Below are positions 6,359 through 23,419 of a stretch of DNA of 64,000 nucleotides, piece by piece. The translations under genes and the position numbers were made by a program. This DNA comes from Planctomycetota bacterium (GTDB lineage: Bacteria > Planctomycetota > UBA11346), in assembly GCA_038213805.1 (NCBI GenBank), contig JBBQSO010000009.1:31663-95662 (forward strand). The letters run 5' to 3'. Each line of letters starts with the position of its first letter. Positions within the stretch are counted from its first letter, which is position 1. The notes beneath the pieces were generated by a model. That model had not been told where the DNA came from, ran no database searches, and worked only from the letters and a program-made list of their open reading frames with translations.

Positions 6359-6522
6359 GGTGCGCAACCCTAGCCGAGGTCCGCTGCGCCGCCATGCCCC
6401 GGCGAGCCGCACGCGCGCGGCCGTCTCCCACAAGCTGCTGCTACCCTCAGGGTGCGTTAGCGGCGCGGGCCATGGCGCGGGCGGTCGAAGAACGGGTGCA
6501 GCATCGACGACGCAGCTGACGC

Positions 6523-6538
6523 TGGCACGACCCGTGCG
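6523..6538 (+). promoter_or_regulatory. Possible sigma-54 (-24/-12) promoter
   Basis: TGGCACG-ACCC-GTGCG has GG-N10-GC spacing and lies about 50 bp upstream of the ATG at 6590. Confidence 0.35.
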
Positions 6539-6589
6539 AAGGATTCGACCGGACGGACCTTGCCAGGTGTTTTTTTTGGGGACATACTC

Positions 6590-7112: not shown

Positions 7113-8462
7113 TTATCGCCCGCTCAGCGTCTCCGCCCACGCCAGGATCTCCAGCGCGTGGCGATCGCCGGGTGCCTGATCCAGCACCGCATGCACCTGC
7201 GCGAGTGCCTCGTCGCGGCGCTGCTGACTGCCCAGGATGAGGGCCATGGCGAGGCGCGCATCGCGTACGCAGGCCGGGTCACCCAGCGTGCGCGCATAGA
7301 GGTCAAGCGCCGCCTGGAGATCGCCGGAGTCCGCGGCCAAGCGCGCCGCCCACAACAGGGTGGCGCTGTCGGTCTGGCCGCTGGCGAGCAGCGCGGCGAG
7401 TGCGGCGCGCGCCGCAGGCCGGTCTCCGGCCGACCAGGCGAGCCAGGCGGCGAGGCGCTGCGTACGCGGCGCCGACGCTTCGGTGGGGGCGAGGCGCGCG
7501 AGCAGGGCGCGGCCCTCGCCGGGCGCACCGGCATCCCCCGCAACCGCCGCCGCCGCGAGCAGCAGCGCGGGCGTGGCCAGCTCGCTGGCGAGCGCTGCGC
7601 GGTAGGCGGCCAGGGCCGGCTGGAAGAGCCCGGCACGGCGCAGGTCGTCGGCGAGGCGGCTGCTCGGTACCGCGCCGGCGCGGTGCGCGGCAAGCGCGGT
7701 CGCCGCCGTCTCGTCCGGATCCCCACCGTGCTCGCGCGCCGCGAGCAGCGCCTGCCAGGCGAGCTGCCGATCCGCCTCAAGCGGCGGCGGGGTACGCACG
7801 AGCAGCTCGTGCGCGGCCGCGGCGAGATCGTCCCACTGCGCGCCGGCCTGCAGCGCGGCGAGTTCGATGCGCATGAGGTTGGCGTCGGCGGGGAAGCGCA
7901 TGCGACCAAGGCCGGCGGTGGCCAGTGCACGCCGCGGTGCTCCGGCCTCCAGCTGGCAGCCGGCGAGGATGGCGAGGTCGTTGGCGGTGGCCACGGGCGC
8001 GGTGCCGCCGGCCAACGCGTCGGCGAGTTCGAGCGCGGCCCCCGCGCGGTCGCCGGCGGCGGCCAGGGCGCGGCCAAGATTGGCGCGCGTGCCGGGGGGC
8101 ACCTGGGCGGTGGGAGCGACCAGGGCCGCGCGGTAGGCGGCGATGGCGGCCGGGAAATCGCCGGCGACGAAAGCCGCGTCGCCGCGCACGCGCTGCAGCC
8201 AGGGATGGTCGGGACCCCGGTAGGCGGCGAGGCGGGCCTGCGCGTCCTTGATCTGGTCCGCGTTCAGCAGCGGATGCACCGCGTTGATCAGCTCGACCAG
8301 CGCCGGTGGCAGGGGTGCCGCGGGCGCGGGTGCGGCCTCGGCGGGGGCGGCGATGATCGCGACTTCGGCGGCGCCGGCCGGGAATGCCAGCCACGCGCAG
8401 ATCAGCAGCGCGGCGACGCTGCCGACGAGCCGCCGGTGGATGCGCAGGTCAGGGCAGGACAT
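7113..8462 (-). CDS. Exported TPR-repeat protein of the TonB cluster
   Basis: Signal peptide, repeated TPR-like helices (GDFPAAIAAYRAAL, GDLQAALDLY), overlaps tonB. Confidence 0.75.
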   Translation of the reverse strand: MSCPDLRIHRRLVGSVAALLICAWLAFPAGAAEVAIIAAPAEAAPAPAAPLPPALVELINAVHPLLNADQIKDAQARLAAYRGPDHPWLQRVRGDAAFVAGDFPAAIAAYRAALVAPTAQVPPGTRANLGRALAAAGDRAGAALELADALAGGTAPVATANDLAILAGCQLEAGAPRRALATAGLGRMRFPADANLMRIELAALQAGAQWDDLAAAAHELLVRTPPPLEADRQLAWQALLAAREHGGDPDETAATALAAHRAGAVPSSRLADDLRRAGLFQPALAAYRAALASELATPALLLAAAAVAGDAGAPGEGRALLARLAPTEASAPRTQRLAAWLAWSAGDRPAARAALAALLASGQTDSATLLWAARLAADSGDLQAALDLYARTLGDPACVRDARLAMALILGSQQRRDEALAQVHAVLDQAPGDRHALEILAWAETLSGR

Positions 8463-9132
8463 ACTGGAAGGTCCAGGTGCAGCGTGTGCTCACCGCGACG
8501 CCGCCCTTGCGGCCGGCAACGAAGTGCGAGCGCAGGACGCCGTTGAAGCTCGGTTCGCGGAAATGCTCGGGATGGCGTGCCGCGACCAGTTCCAGATCGC
8601 TGACCCGGCCATCCTCGTGGACGATGAAGCTCACCACCACGGTGTCGGTAAGTCCGAGGCGCTGGGCACGTGGCGGATACGCGGGGAAGTGCCGGTCGCT
8701 GGCGCGCACGCCCTCGTCAAGGTCGTGCTCGTCGAGCGGCGCCAGGGTCGGCGCAAGCACGCCCGGTGCGCCGGCCTGGACCTCACCAAGCTGCTGCGGC
8801 ACGAGGTCCGGCAACGGCACGACCACCGGCGCCAGCGGCTGGGCGAGGGCGTCGAGAGTCGGGCGCACGCCGAGATCGAGGGTCGGCATGGCCGGCGGCG
8901 TGGGCGCGCGCGCCGGGCGCGGCGTGACTGGCGGTGCGGACGGCGGTACCACCGGCGGCTGCTCGCGATGCAGCTCGACCAGCGGCGGCAATACCACCGC
9001 CGGGGAGACCGCGAGCATCCGCGCCAGGGCGCTGAACAGCACCAGGTTGACCACCACCGCGGCGAGCAGCGCCACCGCCAGCAGCGGCGTGCGCCGCCGG
9101 CGCGCGGGGCGCAAGGCCAGCGCGGCGCTCAT
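8449..9132 (-). CDS. tonB: Energy transducer TonB
   Basis: N-terminal TM, Pro-rich linker, PAYPPRAQRLG...VVVSFIVHEDGRV C-terminal domain. Confidence 0.85.
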   Translation of the reverse strand: MSAALALRPARRRRTPLLAVALLAAVVVNLVLFSALARMLAVSPAVVLPPLVELHREQPPVVPPSAPPVTPRPARAPTPPAMPTLDLGVRPTLDALAQPLAPVVVPLPDLVPQQLGEVQAGAPGVLAPTLAPLDEHDLDEGVRASDRHFPAYPPRAQRLGLTDTVVVSFIVHEDGRVSDLELVAARHPEHFREPSFNGVLRSHFVAGRKGGVAVSTRCTWTFQYVLP

Positions 9133-9551
9133 GGCGCCTCCCTGGCCTGGGCGGCGAGATCGACGCGCTGCGCGCCGGCGGCGGTGCAGGCGTCCATGAC
9201 CTCGAGCATGCGTCCGGTGCTCACCTGGCGGTCAGCCACCAGCAAGACGCGCACGGCGCCACTGCGCTGGAGGGCTGCGGCGAGCGCGCCGAGTCCATCG
9301 CCGTGCGCGCCACCCGGCAGCAGCACCGCGCCGCTCGCGGTCAGCGCCACCAGCAGCACGTCGTTGGCCTCAGTGGGCCGCGCCTGCGCGCTGCCCGGAC
9401 GCTCGATGTCGACGGTGCTGTCGGCGGTGAAGCTGGTGGTGACCATGAAGAACACCAGCAGTACGAAGAGGATGTCGATCAGGCTGATGACGTTGATCTC
9501 GACGCCACCGGCGGGCCGGCGGCGCTGGCGCAAGAACAGCAGCGGGTTCAT
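9129..9551 (-). CDS. exbD: Biopolymer transporter ExbD
   Basis: INVISLIDILFVLLVFFMVT TM with the conserved Asp; ADRQV...VMD motif. Confidence 0.9.
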   Translation of the reverse strand: MNPLLFLRQRRRPAGGVEINVISLIDILFVLLVFFMVTTSFTADSTVDIERPGSAQARPTEANDVLLVALTASGAVLLPGGAHGDGLGALAAALQRSGAVRVLLVADRQVSTGRMLEVMDACTAAGAQRVDLAAQAREAP

Positions 9552-9970
9552 GAGCGCGCTCCGGCACGCGTGCCGGCTGCGGTAAGCATGGCGACCCGGC
9601 GCGCGAACAGCGCGTGGGCGAGCGCCGCCGGGATCGCCACGACCAGGCCGGCAGCGGTGCAGATCAAGGCCTCGGAGATCCCAGCGGCGAGCTGCCGCCC
9701 GCCGGCGCCGCCGAGCGCGGCGAAGCAGGTGATGATGCCGCTGACCGTGCCGAGCAGGCCGAGCAGCGGCGCGACCGCGGCGAGGATGCGCAGCAGCCAT
9801 AGGCGCGCGCGCAGGCGTTGCGCGCCGTCCGCCGCGGAGAGCCAGCCCAGCGCCACGCCCTCAAGGATCAGCGCCCACGCGACCACCCCGCACAGCGCGG
9901 TCGCCCACAGCGGCGCGCCGCCGATGGCGGCCAGGCGTTCCAGCGCGGTGAGCAGGCCGTCAGCGGGCAT
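9548..9970 (-). CDS. exbB: Short MotA/TolQ/ExbB proton channel protein
   Basis: APLLGLLGTVSGII...GISEALICTAAGLVVAIP. Confidence 0.9.
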   Translation of the reverse strand: MPADGLLTALERLAAIGGAPLWATALCGVVAWALILEGVALGWLSAADGAQRLRARLWLLRILAAVAPLLGLLGTVSGIITCFAALGGAGGRQLAAGISEALICTAAGLVVAIPAALAHALFARRVAMLTAAGTRAGARS

Positions 9971-11228
9971 GGGCCGACTCCCCCGCCACCGCCGCGACGC
10001 GCCCGGACGCGGAGGCAGGCGCGGCGTGCGAGCTGGCCAGGGCGGTGGCCTGCTCCTCGATGCGCGTCAGTGCGCGTTCGGCGCGGCGGGCGAGCAGGGC
10101 GTGCGCGAACAGCACCGGCACCGCCACCAGCAGCCCGAGCTGAGTGGTGATGAGCGCCTCGGAGATGCCGCCGGAAAGCAGCTTGGGGTTGCCGGTGCCG
10201 TGCGCGGAGAGCACCTGGAACATGCGGATCATGCCGCTGACCGTGCCGAGCAGGCCGAGCAACGGTGCGATGGCAGCGAGCATGCCGAGCACGGTCAGGC
10301 TGCGTTCGATGCGCGGGGTCTGCGCGAGGATGGCCTCGCCAAGCGCGGCGGCGCGCGCCTCGAAACCGCGCGCGAACACCGCCAGGCCGGCGCCGAGCAC
10401 GCAGGCCACGGGCGTGCCGTGCCCGACCAGCAGGCGCTGCGCGGCGGCGAGGTCGCCGGCGGCGACGCTCGCAACCACCGCGCGGCCGAGCCCGTCGTCG
10501 CCGCGCTCGCGGTGGAAGCTGAGCAAGCGTTCAAGCACCAGCAGCAGCGCGATCAGGCCGGTGGCGAGGATCGGAATGACGAACCAGCCGCCGTCGGCGA
10601 GCTTGCGCCAGAGCGTGCGCGGCGCCGCGGCAGTCTGCGCGGCGAGCTTGCCGGTGACGTCGACCGCGATCCAGCCAGCGCGCGTCGGGCCAGGTATCGT
10701 CGGACCAACCTGCCGCCAGCCGTCGCCAAAGGGTGCCACCAGTGCGGCCGATTCGGCCACGGCAGCACCGGCCGCACCCAGGCGGATGACGGTCGCGGTC
10801 GCCTGGTGGCCGTCCCACCACGTCACCGGCGCCTGCTGCGCCATCAGGGTGGTGGCAGCGGCAAGCTGGGCCGCGGCGGACTCCTGCCAGCGGCGCAGGC
10901 TGGCGGCGAGCGGCGTCGTGGCCGGCACACCGGCGATGCTGGCGGCTTGGCGCGCCAGCTCGAGACGCAGAGGCCGGGGATCGGTGGGCAGCGGTGCGGC
11001 GAGTTGCGCGTCCAGCGCGCGCAGCTCGCTCGCGCGCGACGCGGCGGCCTGCGCCAGCTTGGTCAAGCGCTCACCGAGCGCGCGGCGCTCGACCCCGACC
11101 TGATCCTGGGCCGCGGCGAGCGCCGTACGCGCGCCCGCAGGGTCATAACCGGCAGTGTCCGCGGCGGTGCCGACGGGGGTCGTGAACGCGAGGATCACGA
11201 CCGCGGCGAAGACCCAGGGCAGGCGCAT
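9960..11228 (-). CDS. Long MotA/TolQ/ExbB family protein with periplasmic N-terminal domain (TtpC-like)
   Basis: Signal peptide MRLPWVF, DVTG motif, APLLGLLGTVSGMI...GISEALITTQLGL. Confidence 0.85.
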   Translation of the reverse strand: MRLPWVFAAVVILAFTTPVGTAADTAGYDPAGARTALAAAQDQVGVERRALGERLTKLAQAAASRASELRALDAQLAAPLPTDPRPLRLELARQAASIAGVPATTPLAASLRRWQESAAAQLAAATTLMAQQAPVTWWDGHQATATVIRLGAAGAAVAESAALVAPFGDGWRQVGPTIPGPTRAGWIAVDVTGKLAAQTAAAPRTLWRKLADGGWFVIPILATGLIALLLVLERLLSFHRERGDDGLGRAVVASVAAGDLAAAQRLLVGHGTPVACVLGAGLAVFARGFEARAAALGEAILAQTPRIERSLTVLGMLAAIAPLLGLLGTVSGMIRMFQVLSAHGTGNPKLLSGGISEALITTQLGLLVAVPVLFAHALLARRAERALTRIEEQATALASSHAAPASASGRVAAVAGESAHAR

Positions 11229-11998
11229 CAGGGCACACCTTGCGTGCTTGGCGGCGCGGGCGCGGGCGCGGGCGGCGCCGGCAGCAGCAGCGCCTCGGGG
11301 ACGGTGTTGCCGCGCAGTTGCGCGATCGCTGCGCTGATCGCCGCGGCGACAGCGGGATCCCCGTCGGGATGCAGCGTCCAGCGCACGCCGGCGCGCTGCG
11401 CAGTGCCGGCCTGGGCACCGTCGAGGCTGACGTACCAGGCTGCGGCATAGCCGGCCTTCACCACCTGCACCGCTACGGTACCGCCGCCCGGGGCGACGCC
11501 CTCGGCGATCTCGATCTCCCAGCGGCCGGCGCTGACGCGCACCGCCTCGAACGCGGCGGCACCGGCACGCAGCTGCGCGGGCAACGAAGCCTCTGCGTCG
11601 GCCTTCGCGCCAGGCACGGAAGCAGACGGATAGGGCGCGAGCATGGCCGTCAACGCAGCCAGGGTGGCGAGCGCCGCCTGGTCGTCGGCGGCCAGCGCGG
11701 CTGCCTCTTCGGCCAGGTGGGCGCCCTCGGCCTGGCGCGTCGCGAGCCGAGCACGCAGTTCGGCGAGCTGCGCGTCCGCGGCCTCCAGCGCGATGGTGCG
11801 GGCGGTAGCCAGGCGTTCGAGGTCGGCGCGCTCCTTTTCCCAAGCGGCAAGCAGGGTGGCGCGCTGGTGCTCGAGCGCGAGCGCGGCGCGCGCCTCGGCC
11901 AGCGCCGCTTCGGGCTCGGCCGCGGCCACCACCCCTGCCAGGAAGGCGAGCAGGGGCGCGAGGGCCTTCAGCAGCAGGGAGGAACGGGCGTGGCGCAT
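11228..11998 (-). CDS. DUF3450-like exported coiled-coil protein (TtpB-like)
   Basis: Signal peptide, coiled coil, VKAGYAAAWYVSLDG; first gene of the TonB cluster. Confidence 0.65.
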   Translation of the reverse strand: MRHARSSLLLKALAPLLAFLAGVVAAAEPEAALAEARAALALEHQRATLLAAWEKERADLERLATARTIALEAADAQLAELRARLATRQAEGAHLAEEAAALAADDQAALATLAALTAMLAPYPSASVPGAKADAEASLPAQLRAGAAAFEAVRVSAGRWEIEIAEGVAPGGGTVAVQVVKAGYAAAWYVSLDGAQAGTAQRAGVRWTLHPDGDPAVAAAISAAIAQLRGNTVPEALLLPAPPAPAPAPPSTQGVP

Positions 11999-12219
11999 CG
12001 GGGTCCGGGAAGGAGGCATCAGCGGAAAGGATGCCGGCGCGGATGGTGGGGCAACGGGGGGATACGTCCAGATCGTGAACAGCGGCAAGACCCCCTGTCG
12101 AGGAGCTGCGCAAGCCCCCGGTCGGCCGGCCACCACCTGCCGGACGTGATCGTGCCTGCCATTGCCTGGGCGCGCGGGCCGCGAGCATCACCCCGGCCGC
12201 GCCTTTCCGGAGCTCACGC

Positions 12220-13095
12220 ATGTCCGACCTCCGCCAGCACTTCCTTCTGACGCTCCTCCTCGGCATGGTATCCGTTTCCGCCACCGTCGAGGCCGCCGAG
12301 CCATCCCCCCTGCGCGTGGTCGCTTCCACCACCATGCTCGCCGACATCGTGCGCCAGGTTGGCGGCGCGCGGGTGGCGGTTACCAGCCTGCTCGCCCCTG
12401 GCGTCGACGGCCACACCTGGCAGCCGGCGCCCGCCGACATTCAGCGCATCGCCACAGCGCGCCTGGTGGTGGTCAATGGCCTGGGCTTCGAGGGCTGGCT
12501 CGACCAGGTCATCGCGAACGCCGGGGCGCGGCCGACCGTGGTCGTGGCCAGCACCGGCGTCACCCCGCGCGGCGGCGATCCGCACGCCTGGCAGGACGCG
12601 CGCAACGGCATGCGCTATGCGCAGGCGATCGGCGCGGCGCTGGCCGCCGCCGATCCCGCCGGCGCGGACGACTACGCCGCCTGGACCGAGGCCTACGTCG
12701 CCCAGTTGCGCGTGGTTGACGCCTGGGTGCGCAAGCAGATCGCCAGCCTGCCGCCGACGGCGCGCGTGCTGGTCACCAGCCACGACGCGCTCGGCTACTA
12801 CGGCCTGGCCTACGGGCTGGAGGTCATCGCCGTCGAGGGCATCGCCACCGGCCAGGAGCCCGACCCCCAACACATCGCCGGCCTCATCACGCTGCTGCGT
12901 GCACGCCACGTGAAGGCGGTGTTTATCGAATCCGTCGCCAGCCCCAAGGTGGTGGAGCAGATCGGCGCGGAAGGTGGCGCCGCGCTCGGCGGCAGCCTGT
13001 TCAGCGACAGCCTCGATGTCCCGGGGGCGCCGGCCGGCACGTACATCGGCATGTTCCTGACGAATACGCGCGCGATCGTGGATGGGCTGCGCTGA
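12220..13095 (+). CDS. Zn/Mn ABC transporter substrate-binding protein (ZnuA/MntA family)
   Basis: VVASTTMLADIV, DGHTWQP, DPHAWQD, TSHDALGY, DSL metal-ligand motifs. Confidence 0.92.
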   Translation: MSDLRQHFLLTLLLGMVSVSATVEAAEPSPLRVVASTTMLADIVRQVGGARVAVTSLLAPGVDGHTWQPAPADIQRIATARLVVVNGLGFEGWLDQVIANAGARPTVVVASTGVTPRGGDPHAWQDARNGMRYAQAIGAALAAADPAGADDYAAWTEAYVAQLRVVDAWVRKQIASLPPTARVLVTSHDALGYYGLAYGLEVIAVEGIATGQEPDPQHIAGLITLLRARHVKAVFIESVASPKVVEQIGAEGGAALGGSLFSDSLDVPGAPAGTYIGMFLTNTRAIVDGLR

Positions 13096-14317: not shown

Positions 14318-15292
14318 ATGGAGCCGTTCCTGCGCACCACGCCACCCGATCTCGCCACCGCGGCAGCGGTGGTGGCGCTGGCGACCCTGGTAGCCGCCGC
14401 TTGGTGGGCGCGACGCTCATGGATCGGTGAACTCACCAGCCATTGGACCCGCCACATCGCCTGGGTGCTGCTCGCCCTCGCGGTGTTCGCCACCTGGCGG
14501 GGAGACTGGTGCATCGCGGTGCTCGCCTGCGGCTTCGCCGCCGCAGGCGCGATCCCATGGCTGCGCGCAGCGCGCGAACACAAGGCCCCGCACACCGCCG
14601 ACGGGCCGACGTTCACGCTGTTGTCGGCCAACCTGCTCTGCTTCAATCAGCAGCGCGCCGCAGCGCTGGCCACGCTCGCCGCCAGCGGCGCCCAGGTTGC
14701 GGTGCTAATCGAAGTCCTGCCCAGCGACGAGATCGCGCTACGCGGCGATCCCCGCTGGCCCCACCAGTCCTGGCACCACGACCCAGACTGGAACGGCTCT
14801 GCGATCCTCAGCGTCCATCCGCTCGACCAGGTCGTGGTGGTGGACCCGCGCCACGCCGCACTCGTCACCACGAGCCTCACCATCGCCGGCCGCTCCCTGC
14901 TGCTGATCGCCGTACATCCCTTCGCGCCAGAAAGCCTCGCGCACACGCGCGAACGCAACGCCCAGTGTGCGCGCCTGACCCAACTGGTCGCCAGCGACCC
15001 CCGGCCGGTCGTGGTCGCCGGGGACTTCAATCTCACCGTCGGCAATCCCGCTTGGCGCGATTTGCACCGCGTCGGCGGCCTGCTGCGCTGCCACGGCGCA
15101 GCGCCTGCGACCTACCCGGCGTGGCTCGGCGGCCTCGGCATCGCCATTGATCACGTGCTGGTGCGCGGGCTCGCGCTGCGCTCGCTTGCTGCAGTGCGCC
15201 TACCGGGCAGCGATCATCGTGGGGTGCTGGCGGAGATCGTCGTGCCACCAGAGTGGATGCAGGGATTTGGCGTGAAACCATCGCGAGGGTAA
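14318..15292 (+). CDS. Endonuclease/exonuclease/phosphatase family protein with N-terminal TM helices
   Basis: LLSANL, VLIE, VVAGDFN, IDHVL and GSDHRGV motifs. Confidence 0.9.
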   Translation: MEPFLRTTPPDLATAAAVVALATLVAAAWWARRSWIGELTSHWTRHIAWVLLALAVFATWRGDWCIAVLACGFAAAGAIPWLRAAREHKAPHTADGPTFTLLSANLLCFNQQRAAALATLAASGAQVAVLIEVLPSDEIALRGDPRWPHQSWHHDPDWNGSAILSVHPLDQVVVVDPRHAALVTTSLTIAGRSLLLIAVHPFAPESLAHTRERNAQCARLTQLVASDPRPVVVAGDFNLTVGNPAWRDLHRVGGLLRCHGAAPATYPAWLGGLGIAIDHVLVRGLALRSLAAVRLPGSDHRGVLAEIVVPPEWMQGFGVKPSRG

Positions 15293-15336
15293 AGCACGCG
15301 ACCATCACGCGCCCGCGGGTCGATCCGCGCAGTGAG

Positions 15337-15410
15337 CGCACCCACCAGGAGTCGAACCTGGGACCTAGTGCTTAGAAGGCACTTGCTCTATCCAGCTGAG
15401 CTATGGGTGC
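15337..15410 (-). tRNA. tRNA-Arg (anticodon TCT), CCA not encoded
   Basis: Reverse complement GCACCCATAGCTCAGCTGGATAGAGCAAGTGCCTTCTAAGCACTAGGTCCCAGGTTCGACTCCTGGTGGGTGCG folds as a cloverleaf with a GTTCGA T-loop. Confidence 0.95.
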
Positions 15411-15575
15411 AGATGTGCGCGTGCGCCGGCATGCTGGCGCCCCCCGCCGCGAGGAAAAGCGCCGAGTGACCCATCCCCGACCGCGAGCAGAGCAGCCGTG
15501 GCGGACCGGGCACGACGGTTGCCTCCCACGGCACCTCACCCGTATCCGCGCACGATCCCTCATCTTTCCAGGCCG

Positions 15576-15622
15576 TCCGACTTCCGGACTTCCGGACTCC
15601 CGGATCTCCGGACTTCCGGACC
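15576..15622. repeat. Degenerate tandem octamer (CTTCCGGA), about 5 units
   Basis: Read directly; abuts the stop of the PhoH gene. Confidence 0.9.
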
Positions 15623-15625
15623 CTC

Positions 15626-16948
15626 TTACAGGATGTTCGCCGCGATCCCCGACAGCTCGCTGCGCTCCGACTTGGTCAGCGTCATGTGTCCCGCCAGCTC
15701 CTGGCCGCGCATGCGCTCGACCACGTAGGTCAGGCCGTTCGAACTCGCATCCAGGTAGGGGTTGTCGATCTGGTGCGGGTCGCCGGTGAGCACGATCTTG
15801 GTGTCGTGGCCAGCGCGGCTGATGATGGTCTTGATCTCGTGCGGGGTCAGGTTCTGGGCCTCGTCGACGATCACGTACTGCTTGCTGATCGAACGGCCGC
15901 GGATGTAGGTCAGGGCCTCGAGCGTGATCGACTCCTCCTCGATGAGGCGCTTGATGACCTCGTCGGGATCGCGCTCCTCGCTGGCGAGCAGGAAGTGCAG
16001 GTTGTCGAAGATCGGGCCCATCCAGTGCGAGAGCTTGTCGTCCTTCGAGCCGGGCAGGTAACCGATGTCCTGGCCGAGCGGCATGATCGGGCGGCTGACC
16101 AGCAGCTTCTTGAAACGTTCGTCGTGAATGACCTTGGCCAGGCCGCAGGCCAGGGCGAGCAGGGTTTTGCCCGTGCCGGCCTGTCCAACCAGGGTGACCA
16201 GCTTGATGCGGTCGTCGAGCAGCAGCTCGAACGCCATGCGCTGCTCGTGGCTGCGCGGCGCGACGCCGAAGAGCATGGGCGGATCATCGTCGATGCGCCG
16301 CAACAGGCCCTTGGCATCGCAGGCGAAGAGCAGGTGCTGCTCCTCGTCCTGGTCGTCGACGGCGACCACGAACTGGTTGGTGACCAGCTCACCGACCAGC
16401 TCGACGGCGATCTCCTCGGGCTTGGCCACGTCGCGGTCGGAGAGCTCGCGCAGGCGCGAGCTCGGCACGGTGATCTGGCGCCAGCCGGTGTAGAGCTCGT
16501 CGACGTTGACCTTCTGATTCTCGAAGTCCTCGCTGGGAATGCCGAGGGCGTCGGCCTTGACGCGCGCGTTGATGTCCTTCGAGATGAAGTAGACGTTGCG
16601 GCCTTCGCGCTTGAAGCGCTGCGCACAGCCCAGGATGCGGTTGTCGTTGACGCCGGGCAGCATGCCCGCGATCTCATCGTAGCCCAGCGCGACCTGCACC
16701 GATCCGCCCTGCGGCGTCGGCACCCCGTCGCGCAGCGAGCCCTTGCTGCGCAGGCGGTCGAGGGCGCGCGCGACCTCGCGGGAGTTCTGCCCGAGCTCGT
16801 TGTTGGCGGTCTTGAACTTATCAAGCTCTTCGAGCACCATCATGGGGATGACCACGTGGTTGTCGGCGAACGCGAAGAGCGACTGCGGGTTGTGCAGCAG
16901 GACGTTGGTGTCGATGATGAAGGTCTTGGCAGTCGCGGGATCGATCAT
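15626..16948 (-). CDS. PhoH2/YlaK family protein (PIN + PhoH ATPase)
   Basis: IDTNVLLH PIN motif, GQAGTGKT Walker A, YIRGRS, DEAQN, LTGDPHQID. Confidence 0.93.
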   Translation of the reverse strand: MIDPATAKTFIIDTNVLLHNPQSLFAFADNHVVIPMMVLEELDKFKTANNELGQNSREVARALDRLRSKGSLRDGVPTPQGGSVQVALGYDEIAGMLPGVNDNRILGCAQRFKREGRNVYFISKDINARVKADALGIPSEDFENQKVNVDELYTGWRQITVPSSRLRELSDRDVAKPEEIAVELVGELVTNQFVVAVDDQDEEQHLLFACDAKGLLRRIDDDPPMLFGVAPRSHEQRMAFELLLDDRIKLVTLVGQAGTGKTLLALACGLAKVIHDERFKKLLVSRPIMPLGQDIGYLPGSKDDKLSHWMGPIFDNLHFLLASEERDPDEVIKRLIEEESITLEALTYIRGRSISKQYVIVDEAQNLTPHEIKTIISRAGHDTKIVLTGDPHQIDNPYLDASSNGLTYVVERMRGQELAGHMTLTKSERSELSGIAANIL

Positions 16949-16959
16949 TGTTCCGGGGT

Positions 16960-19900
16960 TCAGGGGTAGGTGGGTTTGGGCGGGGATTTGAGCTTCGCGT
17001 CGGCGAGCGCGGTGATCAGCAAGTGGGTGCGCGGGCCGAGTTCGATCTTCTGCGTGACGATGGCGTTGCCGGTGCGGTCGGTGACGGTCAGCGCCGTGTC
17101 CTTCCACACCACGCGGTACTCGGTGTAGGCGCTCACCAGGTCAAGATCGATCCAGGTGCCGCTGGTGCGGTCGCTGGCCTGGCCGAGCTGGATGCGCAGT
17201 TTGCCGCTGCCCTTGGCCTCGAAGTTGGCACCGATCATGCCTTCGCGGATCGGCATGCCGATGCCGCTCAGGCTGTCCGGCGCGCCGCTGGGCAGCACCA
17301 CGGTGTTCTCCTCAAGGGTGGCCTTGCCGAACGGCACCAGGTTGAGCGCGGCGAAGGCATCCGCCTTGCCCGCGCTGGCGCCGGCGGGGGCGACGCTGCC
17401 GGCGACCGCCACATAGCCGCGGCTGATGGCGATCTCGTCGAACTGCACCATGGCCCCGGCATTGGTGCCGAAGTGCAGCACCGGCAGCAGGTCGGTGGCG
17501 CGCACCTCGGCGGTCTCGCGACCGTTGTTGAGGTCGACGCCGATGGTGCCGTTGTCGCGCGCGTCGATGCGCAGGAAATTCGAGATCTTGGGCGTGAAGG
17601 GGAAGGGCTTGGCCTTGCGGCTCTCGGTCTTGGTCTTGACCTCGTAGGTGTTGGCCGAGAAGTCGAGGATGACCTGCACGCTGCGGAAGTTCACCACCAT
17701 CCCGCCGCGGTTGGCGGCGATCTGGTAGACGATCGATACCGCCTTGGCCGAGGCCATGTCGCGGCGCTCCAGCCAGGCGTTGTCGCCGAGGTTGCCGAGC
17801 AGACCCTTGGAGACCTGCCAGTTGCTGGAGCGTTCGGGGAAGCCCTTGGCAAGGTCGTCGGGCATGTCGAAGGTGACGTTGTCCTTGCTGCTCGCCACCG
17901 CGGGCTCGCCCGCGCGGGCGGGGGCGAGGTTCTTGAGCGCGGTCTCGAAGCGCGCCATGGGCTCGACCGCCTGCGGGAACTGGACCTTGTCGACCTTGCG
18001 CAGCGCCTCGAACGCGTCCTGCATGCCCTTGGCGTTGCCGAGCCTCAGCGCCTCGTTGCCCTTGGCGACGCTGTCGTTCACGTCGCGCTGGCGCTCGAGC
18101 GAGATCAGGATCTCGAGTTCGCTGCCGACTTCCGGCGCGAGCACGCCCTTGGCCTTGCGCAGCTGCACGCCCGCCAAATCGGGATCGCCGGCGGCGAGCA
18201 GCATGATGGTGGCGAGCGCGTGGTCGTCGCCCTTGGCGGCCGGCACCGCCGCGGCGGCGCGGAAGAGCTCAGCGACATCCTTGATCGCGACCTGCGGCCA
18301 CGTGAGTTCCGTGCGGCTGTCGTTGGGCGAGGTGATGGTCACGCCCGCCGCGGTCGCCCCGGTCACGTCCCAGAGCTCGGCCGTGGTGGGGTGGCGGACG
18401 CGCAGCTTGGCCGGCGGGTGCTCGCTGATGATGCGCGCGAGCACGTCGCCGCGGTTGTTCCACAGCACCACCTTGTGCTTGATCGCGGCACTCTCGGGCG
18501 CGCCATCGGGCAGGGTGGTGAGCTGCTGCTGGACGAGGTTCTGGTTGTTGACCAGCAGCGCTGCGGTGACCTGGCTGTCGATCTGCACGATGCGCTGGAG
18601 GTCGGGCTTGGCGGGCTCGGGCAGCGCCGCCGGGACGGACGGTACCGCGGCGGGCGACGGGACGGCGGCGACGGCCGGATCCTTGGTCGCCTCGCCGCCG
18701 CCGGCGGGGGCGAGTGTCACCGGCCGGCCGAGGCGCTTCTCTGCCTCGGTGGCCAGGCCCTTGGCCCAGGCGGCGTCGCCCGGGAAGCCCCAATACGTCT
18801 GGGGCGGGGTCAGCAGGGCGCCGATCAGCACCGGGTCGGTACCAGCCGCGGCCTCTTTCTCGACCGCCTGACGGCGCAAGTCGTGATTCGCGCGCACGCG
18901 CTCAGCGACGTTCTTCGAGTCCTCCTCGGTGGGCAGGGTGTCGCACTTGGCGAGCGCCTCGGCGAAATGCTCGCTGCGCTCGAGGCTGCCGATCTCGAGG
19001 ATCACCTGGACGCGCTCTTCGGAGGTGACGCGCTTGACCGCGACCGGCTCCGGCGCCGTGGTGCCGCCGATCGAGCCGTCGACCCCGGCTGGAACGGTCG
19101 CGGTGGGCACGGCGGCGACCGCCGGAGCGGCGGGCTTGTCAGGGCCGGCCGCGGCGCCCGGCGCGAGCGCGGAGAAGGCGCCCTTGCCTGGCGGCTTGGG
19201 CTTGTCGACGGTCGGCGCCGCAACTGGCGCCGGGGCCAGTTGCGGCGACTTCGCCTTCTCCGGCATCGGCTCGAGCGGCGCCAGGGTCGGGCGCGTCGCC
19301 ACCTTCACCGGATTGAGTACGTAGAAGCCGACCGCGCCGCCGATCAGCAGCACCGCGACCACCACCAGGACGATGATGCCGGTCGAGCTCTCGGGCTCTT
19401 TGCGCCGCGAAGTGGTTACCTCGCCGCTGGCGGTACGCGAACCGCGCCGCGCGGTGCCCGTGCCGGTGCCGGTGCGGTTCATGCTCGAGGTGCCGATGCG
19501 CGGGATCGGACCGGTCGCGGTACCACCCATGCGCGGGATCGGACCGGTGACGGTGCCGCTGCGCCGGATGCTGGCGCTGCCGGGCGCAGGATTGGAGATG
19601 TTCGAGGTGAGGCGCAGGGTCTGCCGCTTGGCGCCGCCGCCGAAACGGTCGAGGGTGTCGATGACCTCGCGGTAGCCCTGGAAGCGGTCCTTACGCTCGG
19701 CCGCCACCAGCTTCTGGAAGAACAGGTCGAGGTCGCGGCTGACGCCACCCTGCACGCTGCGCAGGGAGCGCGCGCCGTTGGCCACCACCTTGTGCAGCGC
19801 CTCGTGGGCGTTGTAGCCGGTGACCAGGCCCTCGCCGGTCATCATGCGGAAAAGCAGCGCGCCGAGCATGAAGATATCGGCGCGCACGTCGCTGCGGATC

Positions 19901-21393
19901 TCATCGCTGAGATGCTCGGGGGCGAGGTAGTACTCGGTCGCGGCGCTCGCGCCGGAAAGTTCACGCACCAGGTAGCGGTGGTTCTTGGGCACCGCCAACT
20001 CGTCGAGCAGGACGTTGCCCTCAGGGCTGACCAGCACCACCTCGGGACGCAGCCAGCCGTGCACCACGCCGTGGCGCGCGGCCTCCTCCAGGGCGAGGGC
20101 GAGCTGGCGGATGATGCCCATGGCGTGCGGCGGGGCGAGCGCGCGGCGGCGAGCGAGGATGTGCCCGAGCGGCTCGTAGTCGGCGGGATCGGTGCTGAAC
20201 AACGCCGCGGCGTCGCGCGTCGGCTGGAGCGCGGCGAGGGGCAGGATGTAGGGATGCTTGACCTGGCTGGCGAGGCGCACGTGCGGCTCGAGCGCCTGCT
20301 GATAGCCGGGTTGGCGCATCAGCGCGGTGTTGAGGGTCAGGGCGCGCAGATTGCGGCCGGTGGCGCGCTCGCGCACGCGCGCGCGGCGGCCCTGCACGCT
20401 CTCGTCGAGGGGCGCGATCAGGTCGAAGCCGGGCACCTCGAAGGGCACCACGCTGCTGACTTGCGGCGGCAGCTGCGCCTGCGCGCCGCGAGCGGCACCG
20501 AGCGCCCCCGTGCCGCCGGCCGGGTCGGGGATCGCCTGCATGCCGTAGGCGCTTTCGTCGCGCAACTTCTCGCCGATGGTCGCGCGCGGGCCCGAGCCGC
20601 CGCCGACGGCGGCGGGCGCCGGAGCGCGCGTCAGACCGCGCTCGGTGTCGAGGACCTCGAGCGCCGAGCCGCACACACCACAGGCGTAGACCATGCCGAC
20701 CGCGGCGTTGCCGATCTCGAGCATGGCCTGGCAGCGGTAGCACGAGATCAGCCAGCTGCCGGAGCGTGCCGCCACCGGCTCCTGGTCGGGGATCGCCGCC
20801 TGCGGCACGCCGGAATCGCTGCGCCGCGCGCGCTCGAGCGCGAGATCGGAGACCACGCGCATGGTCTCCATCACGCCCTGGCCGTCGATCGCCACCGCCG
20901 CCACGCTCGGCCAGCCGCGCACGTTCATCAGCGGCTCGAGCTGCTCGGGCCTGAGCGCGGTCGGCAGGTCCTGCTTGTTGTACTGCATCACCACCGGGAT
21001 GTCGTCGGCCAGCGCATGATGGCGCAGGTTGCCGAGCATCTCGTTCATCGCTTCGATGTTCTCGTCGAGCGCCTCGCGGCGGCTGTCGGCGACAAACACC
21101 ACGGCGTCGGCGCCGGCCCGCACCGCGCGGCGCGTGGCGGCGTAGTAGCTCTGCCCGGGCACGGTGTAGAAGTCGAAGCGCACCTGGTGGCCGCGCACCT
21201 CGCCCATCTCGACGGCGAGTAGGTCGAAGCGCAGGGTGCGCTCGGAATGGGTGTCGACCATCACCAGATCGCCCGCGGCCTGGCTCGGCACGCGATCGTG
21301 GATCACCGTCAGGTTGGTGGTCTTGCCCGCCATGCCGGGGCCGTAATAGACCACCTTGAGCACGACTTCACAGGCGGGACCATCGATGCGCAT
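16960..21393 (-). CDS. Fusion protein: MglA-type small GTPase + Zn ribbon + Ser/Thr pseudokinase + TM + large extracytoplasmic region
   Basis: KVVYYGPGMAGKTTNL, ERTL, YTVPGQ, VFVADS, QYNKQDL (MglA); CYRC...CGVC; kinase fold with HPYIL, HGWLRPEVV, YLAPE, DIFMLG; TM IIVLVVVAVLLIGGAVGFYVL. Confidence 0.85.
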   Translation of the reverse strand: MRIDGPACEVVLKVVYYGPGMAGKTTNLTVIHDRVPSQAAGDLVMVDTHSERTLRFDLLAVEMGEVRGHQVRFDFYTVPGQSYYAATRRAVRAGADAVVFVADSRREALDENIEAMNEMLGNLRHHALADDIPVVMQYNKQDLPTALRPEQLEPLMNVRGWPSVAAVAIDGQGVMETMRVVSDLALERARRSDSGVPQAAIPDQEPVAARSGSWLISCYRCQAMLEIGNAAVGMVYACGVCGSALEVLDTERGLTRAPAPAAVGGGSGPRATIGEKLRDESAYGMQAIPDPAGGTGALGAARGAQAQLPPQVSSVVPFEVPGFDLIAPLDESVQGRRARVRERATGRNLRALTLNTALMRQPGYQQALEPHVRLASQVKHPYILPLAALQPTRDAAALFSTDPADYEPLGHILARRRALAPPHAMGIIRQLALALEEAARHGVVHGWLRPEVVLVSPEGNVLLDELAVPKNHRYLVRELSGASAATEYYLAPEHLSDEIRSDVRADIFMLGALLFRMMTGEGLVTGYNAHEALHKVVANGARSLRSVQGGVSRDLDLFFQKLVAAERKDRFQGYREVIDTLDRFGGGAKRQTLRLTSNISNPAPGSASIRRSGTVTGPIPRMGGTATGPIPRIGTSSMNRTGTGTGTARRGSRTASGEVTTSRRKEPESSTGIIVLVVVAVLLIGGAVGFYVLNPVKVATRPTLAPLEPMPEKAKSPQLAPAPVAAPTVDKPKPPGKGAFSALAPGAAAGPDKPAAPAVAAVPTATVPAGVDGSIGGTTAPEPVAVKRVTSEERVQVILEIGSLERSEHFAEALAKCDTLPTEEDSKNVAERVRANHDLRRQAVEKEAAAGTDPVLIGALLTPPQTYWGFPGDAAWAKGLATEAEKRLGRPVTLAPAGGGEATKDPAVAAVPSPAAVPSVPAALPEPAKPDLQRIVQIDSQVTAALLVNNQNLVQQQLTTLPDGAPESAAIKHKVVLWNNRGDVLARIISEHPPAKLRVRHPTTAELWDVTGATAAGVTITSPNDSRTELTWPQVAIKDVAELFRAAAAVPAAKGDDHALATIMLLAAGDPDLAGVQLRKAKGVLAPEVGSELEILISLERQRDVNDSVAKGNEALRLGNAKGMQDAFEALRKVDKVQFPQAVEPMARFETALKNLAPARAGEPAVASSKDNVTFDMPDDLAKGFPERSSNWQVSKGLLGNLGDNAWLERRDMASAKAVSIVYQIAANRGGMVVNFRSVQVILDFSANTYEVKTKTESRKAKPFPFTPKISNFLRIDARDNGTIGVDLNNGRETAEVRATDLLPVLHFGTNAGAMVQFDEIAISRGYVAVAGSVAPAGASAGKADAFAALNLVPFGKATLEENTVVLPSGAPDSLSGIGMPIREGMIGANFEAKGSGKLRIQLGQASDRTSGTWIDLDLVSAYTEYRVVWKDTALTVTDRTGNAIVTQKIELGPRTHLLITALADAKLKSPPKPTYP

Positions 21394-21420
21394 TGCGACC
21401 TCCGGACGGGACGGCTGAAA

Positions 21421-22044
21421 TCACACCACCGCCCGCGCACGATCGGCGGCGGGGGATGGCTTGGGTTTCACGAAAGAACGCAGGGCGAGCACGGCGAAGC
21501 CGCTGCAGATGCCGGCATCGGCGATGTTGAAGGTCGGCCAGACGTAATCGATGCCGACACCCTGAAGGTCGACACGGATGAAGTCGCGCACCCCGCCGAG
21601 GGCGTGCAGGCGGGCCAGGGCGCGATCGATGCCGTTGCCGAGCGCGCCACCGAGGATCGCGCCGAAGGCGAGGTTCTCCCACCGCCCCACCAGGCGGAAG
21701 TAGCGCCACCAGATCCAGCCGAGCAGCGGGATGAGCAGCGCGGTGACCACCGCGACCAGGCCGGGGAAGCTGCCGGCCATGCCCCAGGCCACGCCCGGGT
21801 TGTAGGAGCGGTCGATCCAGCCCGGCATGCCGCTGACCGGCCCGGGGATGGCGGCGTTGAAGCGCGGCGTCTGCACCGGCAGCGCGAACAGCCACAGCTT
21901 GGTGAGCTGGTCGAGGAGCAACACCAGCGCCAGCGCCGGCACGAACCAGCGGCGCCAGGCCAGGAAGACGCTGATGGTCGAAGTCCCCCGCCGCGGTGGA
22001 GCGGGGGGGTCGGCGGCCAGGGTAGAGGAGCGGGATGAGGGCAT
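21421..22044 (-). CDS. lspA: Lipoprotein signal peptidase II
   Basis: LDQLTK, YNPGVAWG, GGALGNGIDR, VRDFI, PTFNIAD. Confidence 0.93.
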   Translation of the reverse strand: MPSSRSSTLAADPPAPPRRGTSTISVFLAWRRWFVPALALVLLLDQLTKLWLFALPVQTPRFNAAIPGPVSGMPGWIDRSYNPGVAWGMAGSFPGLVAVVTALLIPLLGWIWWRYFRLVGRWENLAFGAILGGALGNGIDRALARLHALGGVRDFIRVDLQGVGIDYVWPTFNIADAGICSGFAVLALRSFVKPKPSPAADRARAVV

Positions 22045-22237
22045 GGCGACCTGGAACGGATGCAGCAGACCAGAAGCGGGGCGCGGGCGCAGGCGGGAAA
22101 TGGCGCTGGGCAGAGCGCGCCCCACGCTCCATCACACTACCTTCCTCAGCAGACGGCCGCAAGCAACAGAGATGGTCGATGGCCGTCTTGCATCCCCTGG
22201 CACACGGCGAGGATACGCTACCCGCCAAGGATTCCGC

Positions 22238-23419
22238 ATGGCCGACTCCGCACCCTCCTCCAGCGTCGAGAACCCCTACCTGGTGCAGAACTACAACCGC
22301 AACGCCGTGCGCTTCGTGCGCGGTTCCGGCTGTCATCTGGAGGACGATCGGGGCAAGCGTTACCTGGACGCCTTCGCCGGCGTGGCGGTGAGCGCCCTGG
22401 GGCACGGCCACCCGCGCCTCGCCCAGGTCATCGCCGACCAGGCGCGGACCCTGATCCACACCTCCAACCACTACTGCATCGGGCGGCAGGAAGAGCTAGC
22501 GAAGCTGATCGTGACCAGCGCCTTCCCCGGACGCGTGCTGTTTTGCAACAGCGGCACCGAGGCCAACGAGATCGCCTACAAGGCCGCCCGGCTGTGGGGC
22601 AACCTGCTGCACGGCGGGCGCAAGACGCGCATGCTGGCGTTCACCAACAGCTTCCATGGTCGCACCCTGGGCGCCCTGAGCATCACCCAGACTCCGGCCT
22701 ACCGCGAGCCTTTCGCCCCCCTGCCGCCGGCCGAGTTCCTGCCCTTCGGCGATCTCGCCGCCTGTGAGCAGGCCATTGGCGACGACGTCGCCGCGGTCTT
22801 CATCGAACCCATTCAGGGCGAGGCCGGGGTCTTCGTGCCGCCCGCCGGCCACCTCGCCGCGCTGCGTGCGCTGTGCACCCGTCACGGCGCCCTGCTGGTG
22901 TTCGACGAGATCCAGACCGGGGTCGGCCGCACCGGCCGCATGTTCGCCTATCAGCATGACGGGGTGATTCCCGATATCATGAGCATGGCCAAGGGCTTGG
23001 GTGGTGGCGTCCCGATCGGGGCCTCGCTCATGAGCGAGGCCGTGGCGGCGCTTTTCAAGCCCGGCATGCACGGCACCACCTTCGGCGGCAACCAACTCGC
23101 CTGCGCCGCGGGCGTGGCCGTGCTGGAAGAGGTCGCCGCCCCCGGCTTCCTCGCCAACGTGGTGGCGCGCAGCGAGCAGCTCCAGGCCGGCCTGCGCGCG
23201 CGCTTCGGTGCCGCCGCGGTGCGCGGCCGGGGCCTGCTGCTTGGCGTCCAGCTCACCCAGGCTCCCGGCCCGCTGGTCAAGGCGGCCCTCGACGCCGGTC
23301 TGGTGGTCGGTCCAGCGGGCAACAACACCCTGCGCATCGCGCCGCCGCTGGTCATCACCGCCGCCGAGGTCGACGACCTGCTGACCCGCCTCGATGTGGC
23401 CCGCGCCGCGCTCGGCTGA
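22238..23419 (+). CDS. argD: Acetylornithine aminotransferase (class III PLP enzyme)
   Basis: YLDAFAGVAV, NSGTEANE, SFHGRT, EPIQGEAG, DEIQTG, AKGLGGG, HGTTFGGN. Confidence 0.88.
   Translation: MADSAPSSSVENPYLVQNYNRNAVRFVRGSGCHLEDDRGKRYLDAFAGVAVSALGHGHPRLAQVIADQARTLIHTSNHYCIGRQEELAKLIVTSAFPGRVLFCNSGTEANEIAYKAARLWGNLLHGGRKTRMLAFTNSFHGRTLGALSITQTPAYREPFAPLPPAEFLPFGDLAACEQAIGDDVAAVFIEPIQGEAGVFVPPAGHLAALRALCTRHGALLVFDEIQTGVGRTGRMFAYQHDGVIPDIMSMAKGLGGGVPIGASLMSEAVAALFKPGMHGTTFGGNQLACAAGVAVLEEVAAPGFLANVVARSEQLQAGLRARFGAAAVRGRGLLLGVQLTQAPGPLVKAALDAGLVVGPAGNNTLRIAPPLVITAAEVDDLLTRLDVARAALG

Follow-up and report, generated by a model that had tools for sequence, protein, structure and literature searches.

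How could a small G protein be wired to the cell envelope within a single bacterial polypeptide? The question is raised by a gene at positions 16960..21393 (minus strand) of the window, a stretch of 64,000 nucleotides from contig JBBQSO010000009.1 of a Planctomycetota bacterium (GCA_038213805.1). The gene encodes a 1477-aa protein in which an N-terminal GTPase domain of the MglA type is followed by a zinc ribbon, a kinase-fold domain, one transmembrane helix, and a large C-terminal part. The protein is a new combination of known modules and is not a strict single-domain MglA, a Roco protein, a GltJ, or a conservon. We tentatively favor, at a little under even confidence, a receptor-like transmembrane switch in which outer domains would act through the transmembrane helix and a pseudokinase relay on the MglA domain in cis, and from there on effectors. 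The parts of the protein, in order of translation, are as follows.

16960..21393, minus strand: whole coding sequence, one uninterrupted ATG-initiated open reading frame (ORF) of 1477 aa plus stop codon
20809..21393, minus strand: MglA-type GTPase domain, residues 1-195, with P-loop G18-T25, Arg finger R52, T53, T77-Q81, and N139-D142
20620..20754, minus strand: zinc ribbon, residues 214-258, with C218, C221, C238, and C241 in the motifs CYRC (218-221) and CGVC (238-241)
20440..20619, minus strand: disordered linker, residues 259-318, predicted local distance difference test score (pLDDT) 28-35, with the motifs DESAYGMQ (278-285) and GAL (296-298)
19624..20439, minus strand: Hanks-fold pseudokinase, residues 319-590, with L352, H445-G-W447, V452, D464-E-L, and a retained A491-P-E
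19384..19623, minus strand: juxtamembrane segment rich in Ser, Thr, Gly, and Arg, residues 591-670, with the repeats TGPIPRMG and TGPIPRIG
19315..19383, minus strand: single transmembrane helix, residues 671-693, with a hydropathy peak of 2.89 at 672-690
19018..19314, minus strand: Pro/Ala-rich extracytoplasmic spacer, residues 694-792, identity 0.25 and coverage 0.57
18730..19017, minus strand: extracytoplasmic helical domain 1, residues 793-888, AlphaFold2 pLDDT 90-98
17929..18606, minus strand: extracytoplasmic helical domain 2, residues ~930-1155, with an embedded small beta unit at ~998-1031
17419..17880, minus strand: beta-sandwich 1, residues 1172-1325, a concanavalin/galectin-like jelly roll
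16963..17337, minus strand: beta-sandwich 2, residues 1353-1477, a concanavalin/galectin-like jelly roll

This is a real, intact, and conserved gene of an uncultured Planctomycetota lineage, and its domain order is kept in one polypeptide. A word-indexed search through 5.8 billion proteins gave 199 matches, of which P0002-P0100 constitute the family (814-1565 aa, E ≤1e-103). Among 100 aligned rows, including the window protein, all 100 have a transmembrane segment after the kinase domain (at least one hydrophobic segment in each), 98 have the motif H[GA]W[LIVM]RP, 96 have two CxxC motifs, and 92 have the P-loop; the rows that miss a motif are N-terminally truncated fragments or the two most divergent rows. 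Residue counts given below refer to the 82 of these rows that are at least 1250 aa long, the 18 shorter ones having been dropped. An exhaustive phmmer search of residues 1-600 against 1.84 billion cluster representatives placed family members in the top ~45 of the best 150 matches, which were examined. A scan of one genome per species, covering 185,579 species, recovered 55 loci, and 49 of them (L001-L048 and L051) belong to the family. All 49 are labeled as metagenome-assembled genomes (MAGs) and none is named as a cultured strain; they are mostly Planctomycetota, with a few Brocadiaceae/Kuenenia and some named bacterium or uncultured bacterium.

Such an arrangement could in principle stem from a chimeric assembly or from read-through of two or three neighboring genes, and split versions do occur. 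On one 7099-nt JGI contig, the gene is divided within the linker into two ORFs (P0263 and P0097), and at two loci of one MAG (L022 and L023) it lies in three to four frame pieces. Yet the ORF in the window is uninterrupted, and because ~100 homologues from independent assemblies, which span many sequencing centers and binning pipelines, keep the same domain order in one ORF, the gene is not an assembly chimera; we consider the chance of an artefact negligible. Short GTPase-only matches within the family are contig ends of 0.9-3.8 kb or are marked partial, the breaks in L022 and L023 are frameshifts within collinear sequence, and the split forms look like indel errors or occasional decay, not an ancestral state. 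The L022 and L023 contigs carry the same block of aminotransferase, lspA, the gene itself, and PIN-PhoH, 85% and 94% identical to the window, and their bin probably mixes two strains. The N-terminal Met is kept in at least 90% of the 86 aligned rows (the window protein and 85 homologues). The third-codon-position G+C content of the 16960-21393 frame is 0.93, typical for coding DNA in this window, which has a G+C content of ~70%.

MglA proteins are marked by an intrinsic Arg finger, located in switch I, and by a G3 motif (TxxGQ) that has Thr instead of Asp and includes the catalytic Gln; Group 1 MglA is a single-domain protein of ~195 aa. The N-terminal domain of the window protein reads YYGPGMAGKTTNL (residues 16-28), SERTL (50-54), TVPGQ (77-81), and NKQD (139-142). 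Searching residues 1-199 against the PDB with phmmer identified MglA of Thermus thermophilus (3t12, E 5.6e-49) and Myxococcus xanthus (5ymx, E 6.2e-47); the next family in the PDB is an Arf-like GTPase at E 4.7e-6, and Pfam reports an Arf match at residues 62-182. We modeled residues 1-600 with AlphaFold2 from an alignment of the window segment and 85 homologues (mean pLDDT 85.2, predicted template modeling (pTM) score 0.54). Foldseek superimposed the GTPase part of this model on MglA with a template modeling (TM) score of 0.89-0.91, a root-mean-square deviation of 2.1-2.2 A, and 40-46% identity. R52-T53 and T77-V-P-G-Q81 align with the equivalent residues of 3t12 and 5ymx, and R52 thus takes the position of the Arg finger described for the MglA family (available text of PMC4316618). 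These residues are close to invariant in the family: G18, K24, and R52 are each found in 81 of the 82 rows, T77 in 80, and T53 and Q81 in 79, and N139, K140, and D142 in 81 each. Judged by sequence and predicted fold, the domain is a MglA-family (Group 1) GTPase with what appears to be a full set of catalytic residues. The protein that carries it, being multidomain and 1477 aa long, falls outside the single-domain definition of Group 1, and the best-matching complete stand-alone MglA proteins among the matches listed are at most 53% identical.

The kinase-fold domain presents the opposite picture with respect to catalysis. Pfam Pkinase matches residues 372-571 with 41.6 bits (cutoff 31.7), PknE (E 5.7e-15) and PknB (E 4.8e-12) match by sequence, and the AlphaFold2 domain superimposes on PknB with a TM score of 0.80 at ~20% identity. 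In HMMER alignments to PknB and PknE, the beta3 Lys is replaced by Leu352, HRD by HGW, the catalytic Asn by Val452, DFG by DEL, and the Gly-rich loop by LDESVQG, while A-P-E is retained. The beta3 Lys is found in 0 of 82 rows (67 have Leu), as are the HRD Asp and the catalytic-loop Asn. The replacement motif is itself conserved, with H in 82, G in 80, and W in 80 rows, and the DFG Asp is present in all 82 but is never followed by the Gly (0/82), so that the motif reads D-E/D-(L/F/I/M). Because Lys, Asp, and Asn are each absent from all 82 rows and the Gly loop and DFG are altered, the domain is a pseudokinase, catalytically dead throughout the family. Averaged across 81 homologues, identity to the window protein reaches 0.69 in the pseudokinase, compared with 0.67 in the GTPase and 0.65 in the zinc ribbon. 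A dead kinase as constrained as the GTPase points to conserved binding surfaces and not to a decaying enzyme.

Membrane-anchored bacterial Ser/Thr pseudokinases have been described, among them the GLW family and ActPs3/MviN. The GLW family has Trp at the HRD Asp, Leu or Trp in place of the beta3 Lys, and a C-terminal transmembrane helix, and occurs mostly in Proteobacteria (PMC12599244, in the part of the review available). Compared by description, the window protein resembles GLW in having Trp at the HRD Asp and Leu at the beta3 Lys; it differs from GLW in that its motif is H-G-W and not G-L-W and its lineage is Planctomycetota and not Proteobacteria. Neither Planctomycetes nor fusions with a GTPase or a zinc ribbon come up in the same available text (PMC12599244).

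Kinase-like domains and nucleoside triphosphatases also meet in anti-phage and other conflict systems, and the PADLOC and NCBIfam models PD-T4-6, MADS6, PglW, and MkoA do match within residues ~336-736. They are confined to the generic kinase fold and fall well short of their cutoffs (MADS6 reaches 69.8 bits against 460), and we rejected a defence function on this ground. It is in any case highly improbable given a dead kinase, a stable housekeeping context across relatives of 40-95% identity, and no defence genes adjacent to the gene.

Between the GTPase and the pseudokinase lies the zinc ribbon, whose four Cys are invariant (82/82 rows). AlphaFold2 predicts it as a small beta structure (residues 214-256, pLDDT 86-93). 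The Pfam model Zn_ribbon_LysW (PF21344) scores 18.5 bits in the window protein, under its cutoff of 27, and 28.3 bits in the relative P0138, and the best match among PDB sequences is the LysW-type 5k2m (E 1.2e-3). The stretches that connect the ribbon to its neighbors (204-211 and 261-313) have pLDDT below 50 in the model of residues 1-600. The motifs of the second linker are present in the 40 closest rows, and A297 and L298 are at least 90% conserved in the 86-row alignment; the Tyr motif, found by regular expression in 46 of 111 family proteins, is thus a sub-clade feature. After the pseudokinase, the juxtamembrane segment carries the repeat [ST]G.[ILVM].[RK].G, with 55 copies inside the segment and 6 outside it across 113 family proteins, and at least one juxtamembrane copy in 34 of the 113. 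These repeats could be phospho-acceptor or docking motifs.

No N-terminal signal sequence was found in the 1477-aa protein and the GTPase must face the cytoplasm, so the 784 residues C-terminal to the helix are likely extracytoplasmic, which would make this a bitopic inner-membrane protein. We modeled residues 780-1477 from the same 85 homologues (mean pLDDT 89.8). A disordered spacer separates the two helical domains in this model, and helical domain 2 is the best-conserved outer segment. Sandwich 1 is present in 58 of 81 full-length homologues and missing in 23. Mean identity over the 81 homologues is 0.32-0.35 in the outer domains and 0.21-0.36 in the linkers. Pfam has no match in the extracytoplasmic half. 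The best Foldseek match of the outer half in the PDB is 4jqt, a putative glycosyl hydrolase of the DUF1080 type (E 1.8e-8), followed by tandem galectins (~1e-6), neurexin LNS domains, a levan-utilisome component, and many chains with the lectin-like jelly roll of clostridial neurotoxin binding domains. The predicted structures assign the outer beta-sandwiches to the concanavalin/galectin-like fold class only and imply neither membership of a family nor toxicity. An Atlas search with residues 780-1477 gave PF06439, DUF1581, and DUF1583 at 0.84-0.86, which are leads only, and one with residues 790-1160 gave a chance-level score of 0.78.

Much of this had been read from the letters alone in a preliminary description. 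The motifs that it quoted are present at the places it gave, and the MglA-like character it saw in the first ~190 aa is confirmed by the PDB matches. The order it proposed for the rest, namely CYRC/CGVC, a kinase fold, one transmembrane helix, and ~780 aa beyond it, holds (the last part has 784 residues), and the label pseudokinase agrees with the complete lack of the Lys, Asp, and Asn. It also proposed a search for full-length homologues with the same order, to be set against separate encoding of the GTPase and kinase parts; ~100 such homologues were found, and separate encoding was not the rule.

MglA is a model bacterial small GTPase that has been studied as a soluble polarity switch under a separate GTPase-activating protein (GAP) and guanine nucleotide exchange factor (GEF). 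The window protein shares with MglA of M. xanthus and T. thermophilus the P-loop, the switch-I Arg-Thr, the T-x-P-G-Q form of G3, and NKxD, but here the domain is the N-terminal part of a 1477-aa membrane protein and no mglB is adjacent. As the preliminary description had noted, mglB is not visible in the 64-kb window either: a Pfam scan of 133 ORFs (33 coding-like and 100 further small ones) gave no match to Robl_LC7 (Roadblock/MglB).

Two systems of M. xanthus provide precedents in trans. GltJ, a protein of the gliding machinery, consists of a zinc ribbon, a linker that binds MglA-GTP beside the ribbon, a GYF domain, a transmembrane helix, and a periplasmic part; its ribbon recruits MglB, and ZnR-GYF proteins are frequent in myxobacteria and planctomycetes (PMC11135422, as far as its available text goes). 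Like GltJ, the window protein is predicted to be bitopic and has a cytoplasmic ribbon, a flexible linker, an interaction domain, one transmembrane helix, an outer part, and a link to MglA; unlike GltJ, it has MglA in cis, its adaptor is a pseudokinase and not GYF, and its ribbon is not detectably similar to that of GltJ (7Z0K). The second precedent is MasK, a membrane-associated kinase whose gene lies beside mglBA and which shows both physical and genetic interaction with MglA (PMC3546991 and PMC2877116, both from partial text). MasK is a separate protein reported to be active, whereas the kinase domain here is dead and fused, a comparison made by description only. By analogy, the fusion can be viewed as a Rosetta-stone form of the MasK-MglA pairing. 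The preliminary description had suggested that an extracytoplasmic input may be coupled through a scaffold pseudokinase to a membrane-tethered GTPase; the architecture it described is real, and the coupling of MglA with a kinase and with a zinc-ribbon membrane protein has these precedents in trans.

The receptor-like reading draws on several observations. The cytoplasmic domains are conserved at 0.65-0.69 and the outer domains at 0.32-0.35, and receptors usually show this combination of a conserved transmitter and a variable sensor. Further, the GTPase is intact, the dead kinase is constrained, GltJ and MasK offer precedents in trans, and no mglB is found in the window. In the mechanism that we propose, the outer part would bind a glycan of the envelope or the environment, and its occupancy or clustering would be passed through the transmembrane helix and the juxtamembrane segment to the pseudokinase, which would serve as a conformational or dimerization relay and not as an enzyme. 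The pseudokinase, with the zinc ribbon and the linker, would then gate the MglA domain in cis, either in its nucleotide cycle or at its effector face, replacing or supplementing the partners that act in trans in Myxococcus (MglB, GltJ, and MasK). The GTPase would be the sole catalytic center, and in its GTP-bound form it would recruit soluble effectors to a membrane site. A stricter form of the receptor-like reading, which we consider rather unlikely, is a self-sufficient single-chain switch: glycan binding would change the conformation of the pseudokinase or form its dimer, and pseudokinase, ribbon, and linker would together be a built-in GAP/GEF or effector gate, such that MglB and RomRX would be unneeded.

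The resemblance to GltJ would also fit a signal in the reverse direction, from cytoplasm to envelope. The protein might be a GltJ-like anchor in which the cytoplasmic MglA switch times the engagement of a periplasmic or outer-membrane complex or of a surface glycan, with adhesion, surface motility, or the pilus or envelope machinery as outlets. The layout of GltJ (ribbon, linker, adaptor, transmembrane helix, and periplasmic part), which is switched by MglA-GTP (available text of PMC11135422), fits this idea, as do the hydrolysis residues kept in the GTPase, expected for a timed on/off cycle, and a PilB-like secretion ATPase gene in the window at 32188-34161. The NCBIfam GltJ model (NF033761) also matches residues 659-792, but weakly, at 17.1 bits against a cutoff of 450, and the match covers only the transmembrane helix and the Pro-rich stretch. 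Pfam finds no GYF domain in the protein, and among the examined loci none has glt- or agl-like genes beside this gene. Parts that dock on a conserved machine would not be expected to diverge as fast as the outer domains do, or to be dispensable like sandwich 1. On balance, an anchor working from the inside out seems somewhat unlikely to us.

Other proteins that combine a G domain with a sensor or a kinase were compared as well. Roco proteins (LRRK2 and the Roco protein of Chlorobium tepidum) likewise hold a Ras-like GTPase and a kinase fold in one polypeptide, but the G domain here is of the MglA type, the kinase is dead, and the protein spans the membrane with a large outer part. A Roco identity was rejected: there is no COR match, Roc scores 16.7 bits against a cutoff of 27, and the interval between GTPase and kinase is taken up by the ribbon and a disordered linker. 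The earlier view that the protein is built from parts unlike those of Roco thus stands. In conservons, the four-protein G protein systems of Actinobacteria encoded as an operon (CvnA-D), a membrane sensor resembling a histidine kinase (CvnA) is coupled to a MglA-family GTPase (CvnD) via separate proteins (PMC4316618 and PMC12236503, in their available parts). The coupling of a membrane sensor to such a GTPase would be common to both, but CvnA, the Roadblock protein CvnB, and CvnC are absent here, the neighbors are lspA and PIN-PhoH, and sensor and GTPase form one chain with a Hanks-type pseudokinase between them. No histidine kinase was found among the neighbors or the ORFs of the 64-kb window when we tested for a conservon.

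Multidomain MglA proteins appear to be common in metagenomes, and several have architectures that bear on this family. Nine Planctomycetota proteins of 622-958 aa (P0147, P0148, P0150-P0153, P0162, P0171, and P0210) fuse MglA to a Hanks kinase. They resemble the family in having an N-terminal MglA followed by a kinase fold, in their phylum, and, in several cases, in a C-terminal transmembrane helix; they differ in that their Pkinase domain is full-length (159-230 bits, with HRDVKP kept in six of the nine) and that they lack the zinc ribbon and the large outer part. Some carry TPR repeats. Named relatives of these fusions, found by searching with P0150, are Planctomycetota MAG proteins labeled "protein kinase" or "hypothetical protein". 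A further group, P0154-P0248, makes up ~95 of the best 150 matches and consists of proteins of 250-620 aa with an N-terminal MglA (41-51% identity) and an unannotated, often Pro-rich extension; one of them, P0225, carries a SurA_N_3 domain. The statement in the preliminary description that MglA normally stands alone is therefore too simple, since beyond the ~45 family rows most of the best 150 matches are MglA with C-terminal extensions. In P0101-P0104, MglA, a long Pro-rich spacer, GYF_2, a receiver domain, and DUF4388 form one chain; in GltJ, it is GYF that serves as adaptor.

Four proteins of 513-523 aa (P0138, P0139, P0141, and P0143) look complete and consist of the ribbon, the HGW pseudokinase, the juxtamembrane repeats, and a C-terminal transmembrane helix. 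They are tail-anchored and have neither the GTPase nor the outer part, as is also the case for P0142 (389 aa). We placed these architectures on quick IQ-TREE domain trees of hand-picked rows (69 for the GTPase and 60 for the kinase, with P0147, P0150, and P0151 left out of the latter because a regular expression missed their HRD region). The family is one clade in both, with support of 99 in the GTPase tree and 100 in the kinase tree. The fusions with Hanks kinases are separate from it in both trees: the GTPase tree gives them a clade of their own (99), and the kinase tree unites their kinase domains in a clade (100) with five kinases lacking a GTPase domain. The two trees do not resolve a sister relation or a single fusion event between the family and these fusions. 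In the kinase tree, P0138, P0139, and P0141 branch from within the family, which implies that the tail-anchored forms arose by secondary loss if the root lies outside the family.

The surroundings of the gene are conserved along with it. Its two immediate neighbors are listed here.

21421..22125, minus strand: lspA, encoding signal peptidase II (Peptidase_A8, E 1.2e-25), start codon uncertain
15626..16948, minus strand: gene for a PIN and PhoH-like ATPase protein, by Pfam match and synteny

All three genes lie on the minus strand, with 27 nt between the end of lspA and the coding sequence and 11 nt between its stop codon and the PIN-PhoH gene. Across the loci, tblastn detected lspA upstream in 43, PIN-PhoH downstream in 27, and a divergent class-III aminotransferase (Aminotran_3) in 26. 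Counted strictly, lspA is next to the gene in 41 of the 44 loci with at least 500 nt upstream, the three exceptions being L039, an overlap artefact, and two divergent second copies. PIN-PhoH is next to it in 24 of the 30 loci with at least 900 nt downstream, or in 27 of 30 if three loci are counted in which it lies slightly farther off or behind a frameshifted ORF; L014, L015, and L034 have no downstream PIN-PhoH. Most MAGs have one copy of the gene. A scan of 15000-23000 for promoters and terminators found nothing exceeding shuffled sequence.

Such a setting would also suit a constitutive landmark or scaffold in the membrane that supports envelope growth, polarity, or division in this lineage and in which the pseudokinase and the juxtamembrane segment are a docking site or phospho-acceptor for active Hanks kinases, the GTPase is a local timer, and the outer part positions the protein in the wall. 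Consistent with this, the copy number is mostly one, the lspA - X - PIN-PhoH cluster is conserved with its short gaps, the pseudokinase is highly conserved, and the juxtamembrane repeat contains Thr. There is a parallel in MviN, whose pseudokinase tail, once phosphorylated by PknB, recruits FhaA (available text of PMC12599244), and the window encodes three strong Hanks kinases (123-160 bits), of which one carries an FHA domain. Shared ancestry alone may, however, account for the synteny among related MAGs, and juxtamembrane phosphorylation is a supposition about a motif that the regular expression finds in only 34 of 113 members. We regard a constitutive scaffold as rather unlikely.

Several results weigh against the receptor-like reading. 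AlphaFold2 fixes no contact between GTPase and pseudokinase or between GTPase and ribbon (pTM 0.54), though the domains are confident. The lectin-like assignment of the outer domains comes with a query-normalized TM score of at most 0.18 and 6-12% identity, at which no ligand can be named. The genome may hold an mglB gene outside the window. The GltJ ribbon 7Z0K is absent from the 15 PDB sequences that a search with the window ribbon found at E up to 10, so that the two ribbons have no detectable similarity. In divergent, deep-branching members of the family (L044, L051, L047/P0092, L041, P0093, P0096, P0132, P0135, and P0140, some of them second copies in two MAGs), the catalytic Gln is replaced (TVPGR, TTPGE, AAPGL, LSGR, and YAGS), often together with the Arg finger, while the ribbon and HGW are kept; their sequences suggest hydrolysis-dead GTPase domains and no universal need for hydrolysis. 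The ribbon-pseudokinase core can work without GTPase and outer part, since the tail-anchored P0138, P0139, and P0141 lack both and nest inside the family. The conserved placement between lspA and PIN-PhoH suggests a housekeeping role over niche sensing.

More widely in the window, a gene for a secretion ATPase of the PilB/GspE type (T2SSE, E 5.1e-130, with an MshEN domain) lies on the plus strand at 32188-34161, ~11 kb from the gene. The three Hanks-type kinase genes are at 34519-37773 (plus), 37445-40396 (plus), and 60934-62730 (minus), and each has a full-length Pkinase match of 123-160 bits; one has leucine-rich repeats and one the FHA domain, and the first two overlap as given because the coordinates run from stop to stop. 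A penicillin-binding protein is encoded at 47399-50509 (minus), with PBP_dimer and Transpeptidase domains and ~550 unannotated residues ahead of them in a stop-to-stop frame. A cluster of the ExbB/ExbD/TonB type occupies 8449-12440 (minus), with TonB_C at 8449-9231, ExbD at 9132-9860, MotA_ExbB at 9551-10066, a second MotA_ExbB in the 9960-12440 frame, and DUF3450 at 11228-12187; a ZnuA gene at 12220-13095 (plus) adjoins it. The assignment to this phylum is in line with the planctomycete-specific PSD/PSCyt domains encoded at 45137-47398. Three coding-like ORFs have no Pfam match at E up to 1e-4: 5123-6613 (minus, 496 aa), 31044-32243 (minus, 399 aa), and 55580-57850 (minus, 756 aa).

The preliminary description recognized no described protein with this architecture, and we likewise found no description of it in the full-text literature searched, nor any literature joining MglA and Planctomycetota. 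Arf, MglA, GTPase, Roc, and pseudokinase do not occur in the papers on Planctomycetes kinases and proteomes that were checked by term. The main survey of Ras-superfamily GTPases in prokaryotes was limited to single-domain proteins, so multidomain MglA proteins fell outside it, and its available text mentions neither Planctomycetes nor kinase fusions (PMC4316618).

In this family, a MglA switch is permanently tethered to the membrane and hard-wired to a conserved dead kinase and a predicted lectin-like outer domain. How members of this phylum establish polarity, divide, and build their envelope is poorly understood. If the coupling in cis is true, the protein would be a compact system for studying the regulation of a GTPase by a pseudokinase, a natural fusion in support of the long-standing but little-explored link between MglA and a kinase (MasK), and, for Planctomycetota, a candidate factor in envelope sensing or polarity. 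Should the self-sufficient single-chain switch prove right, it would be a bacterial analogue of receptor-plus-G-protein signaling, made from a MglA GTPase and a dead Hanks kinase. The architecture suggests a new bacterial way of wiring a small G protein to the cell envelope.

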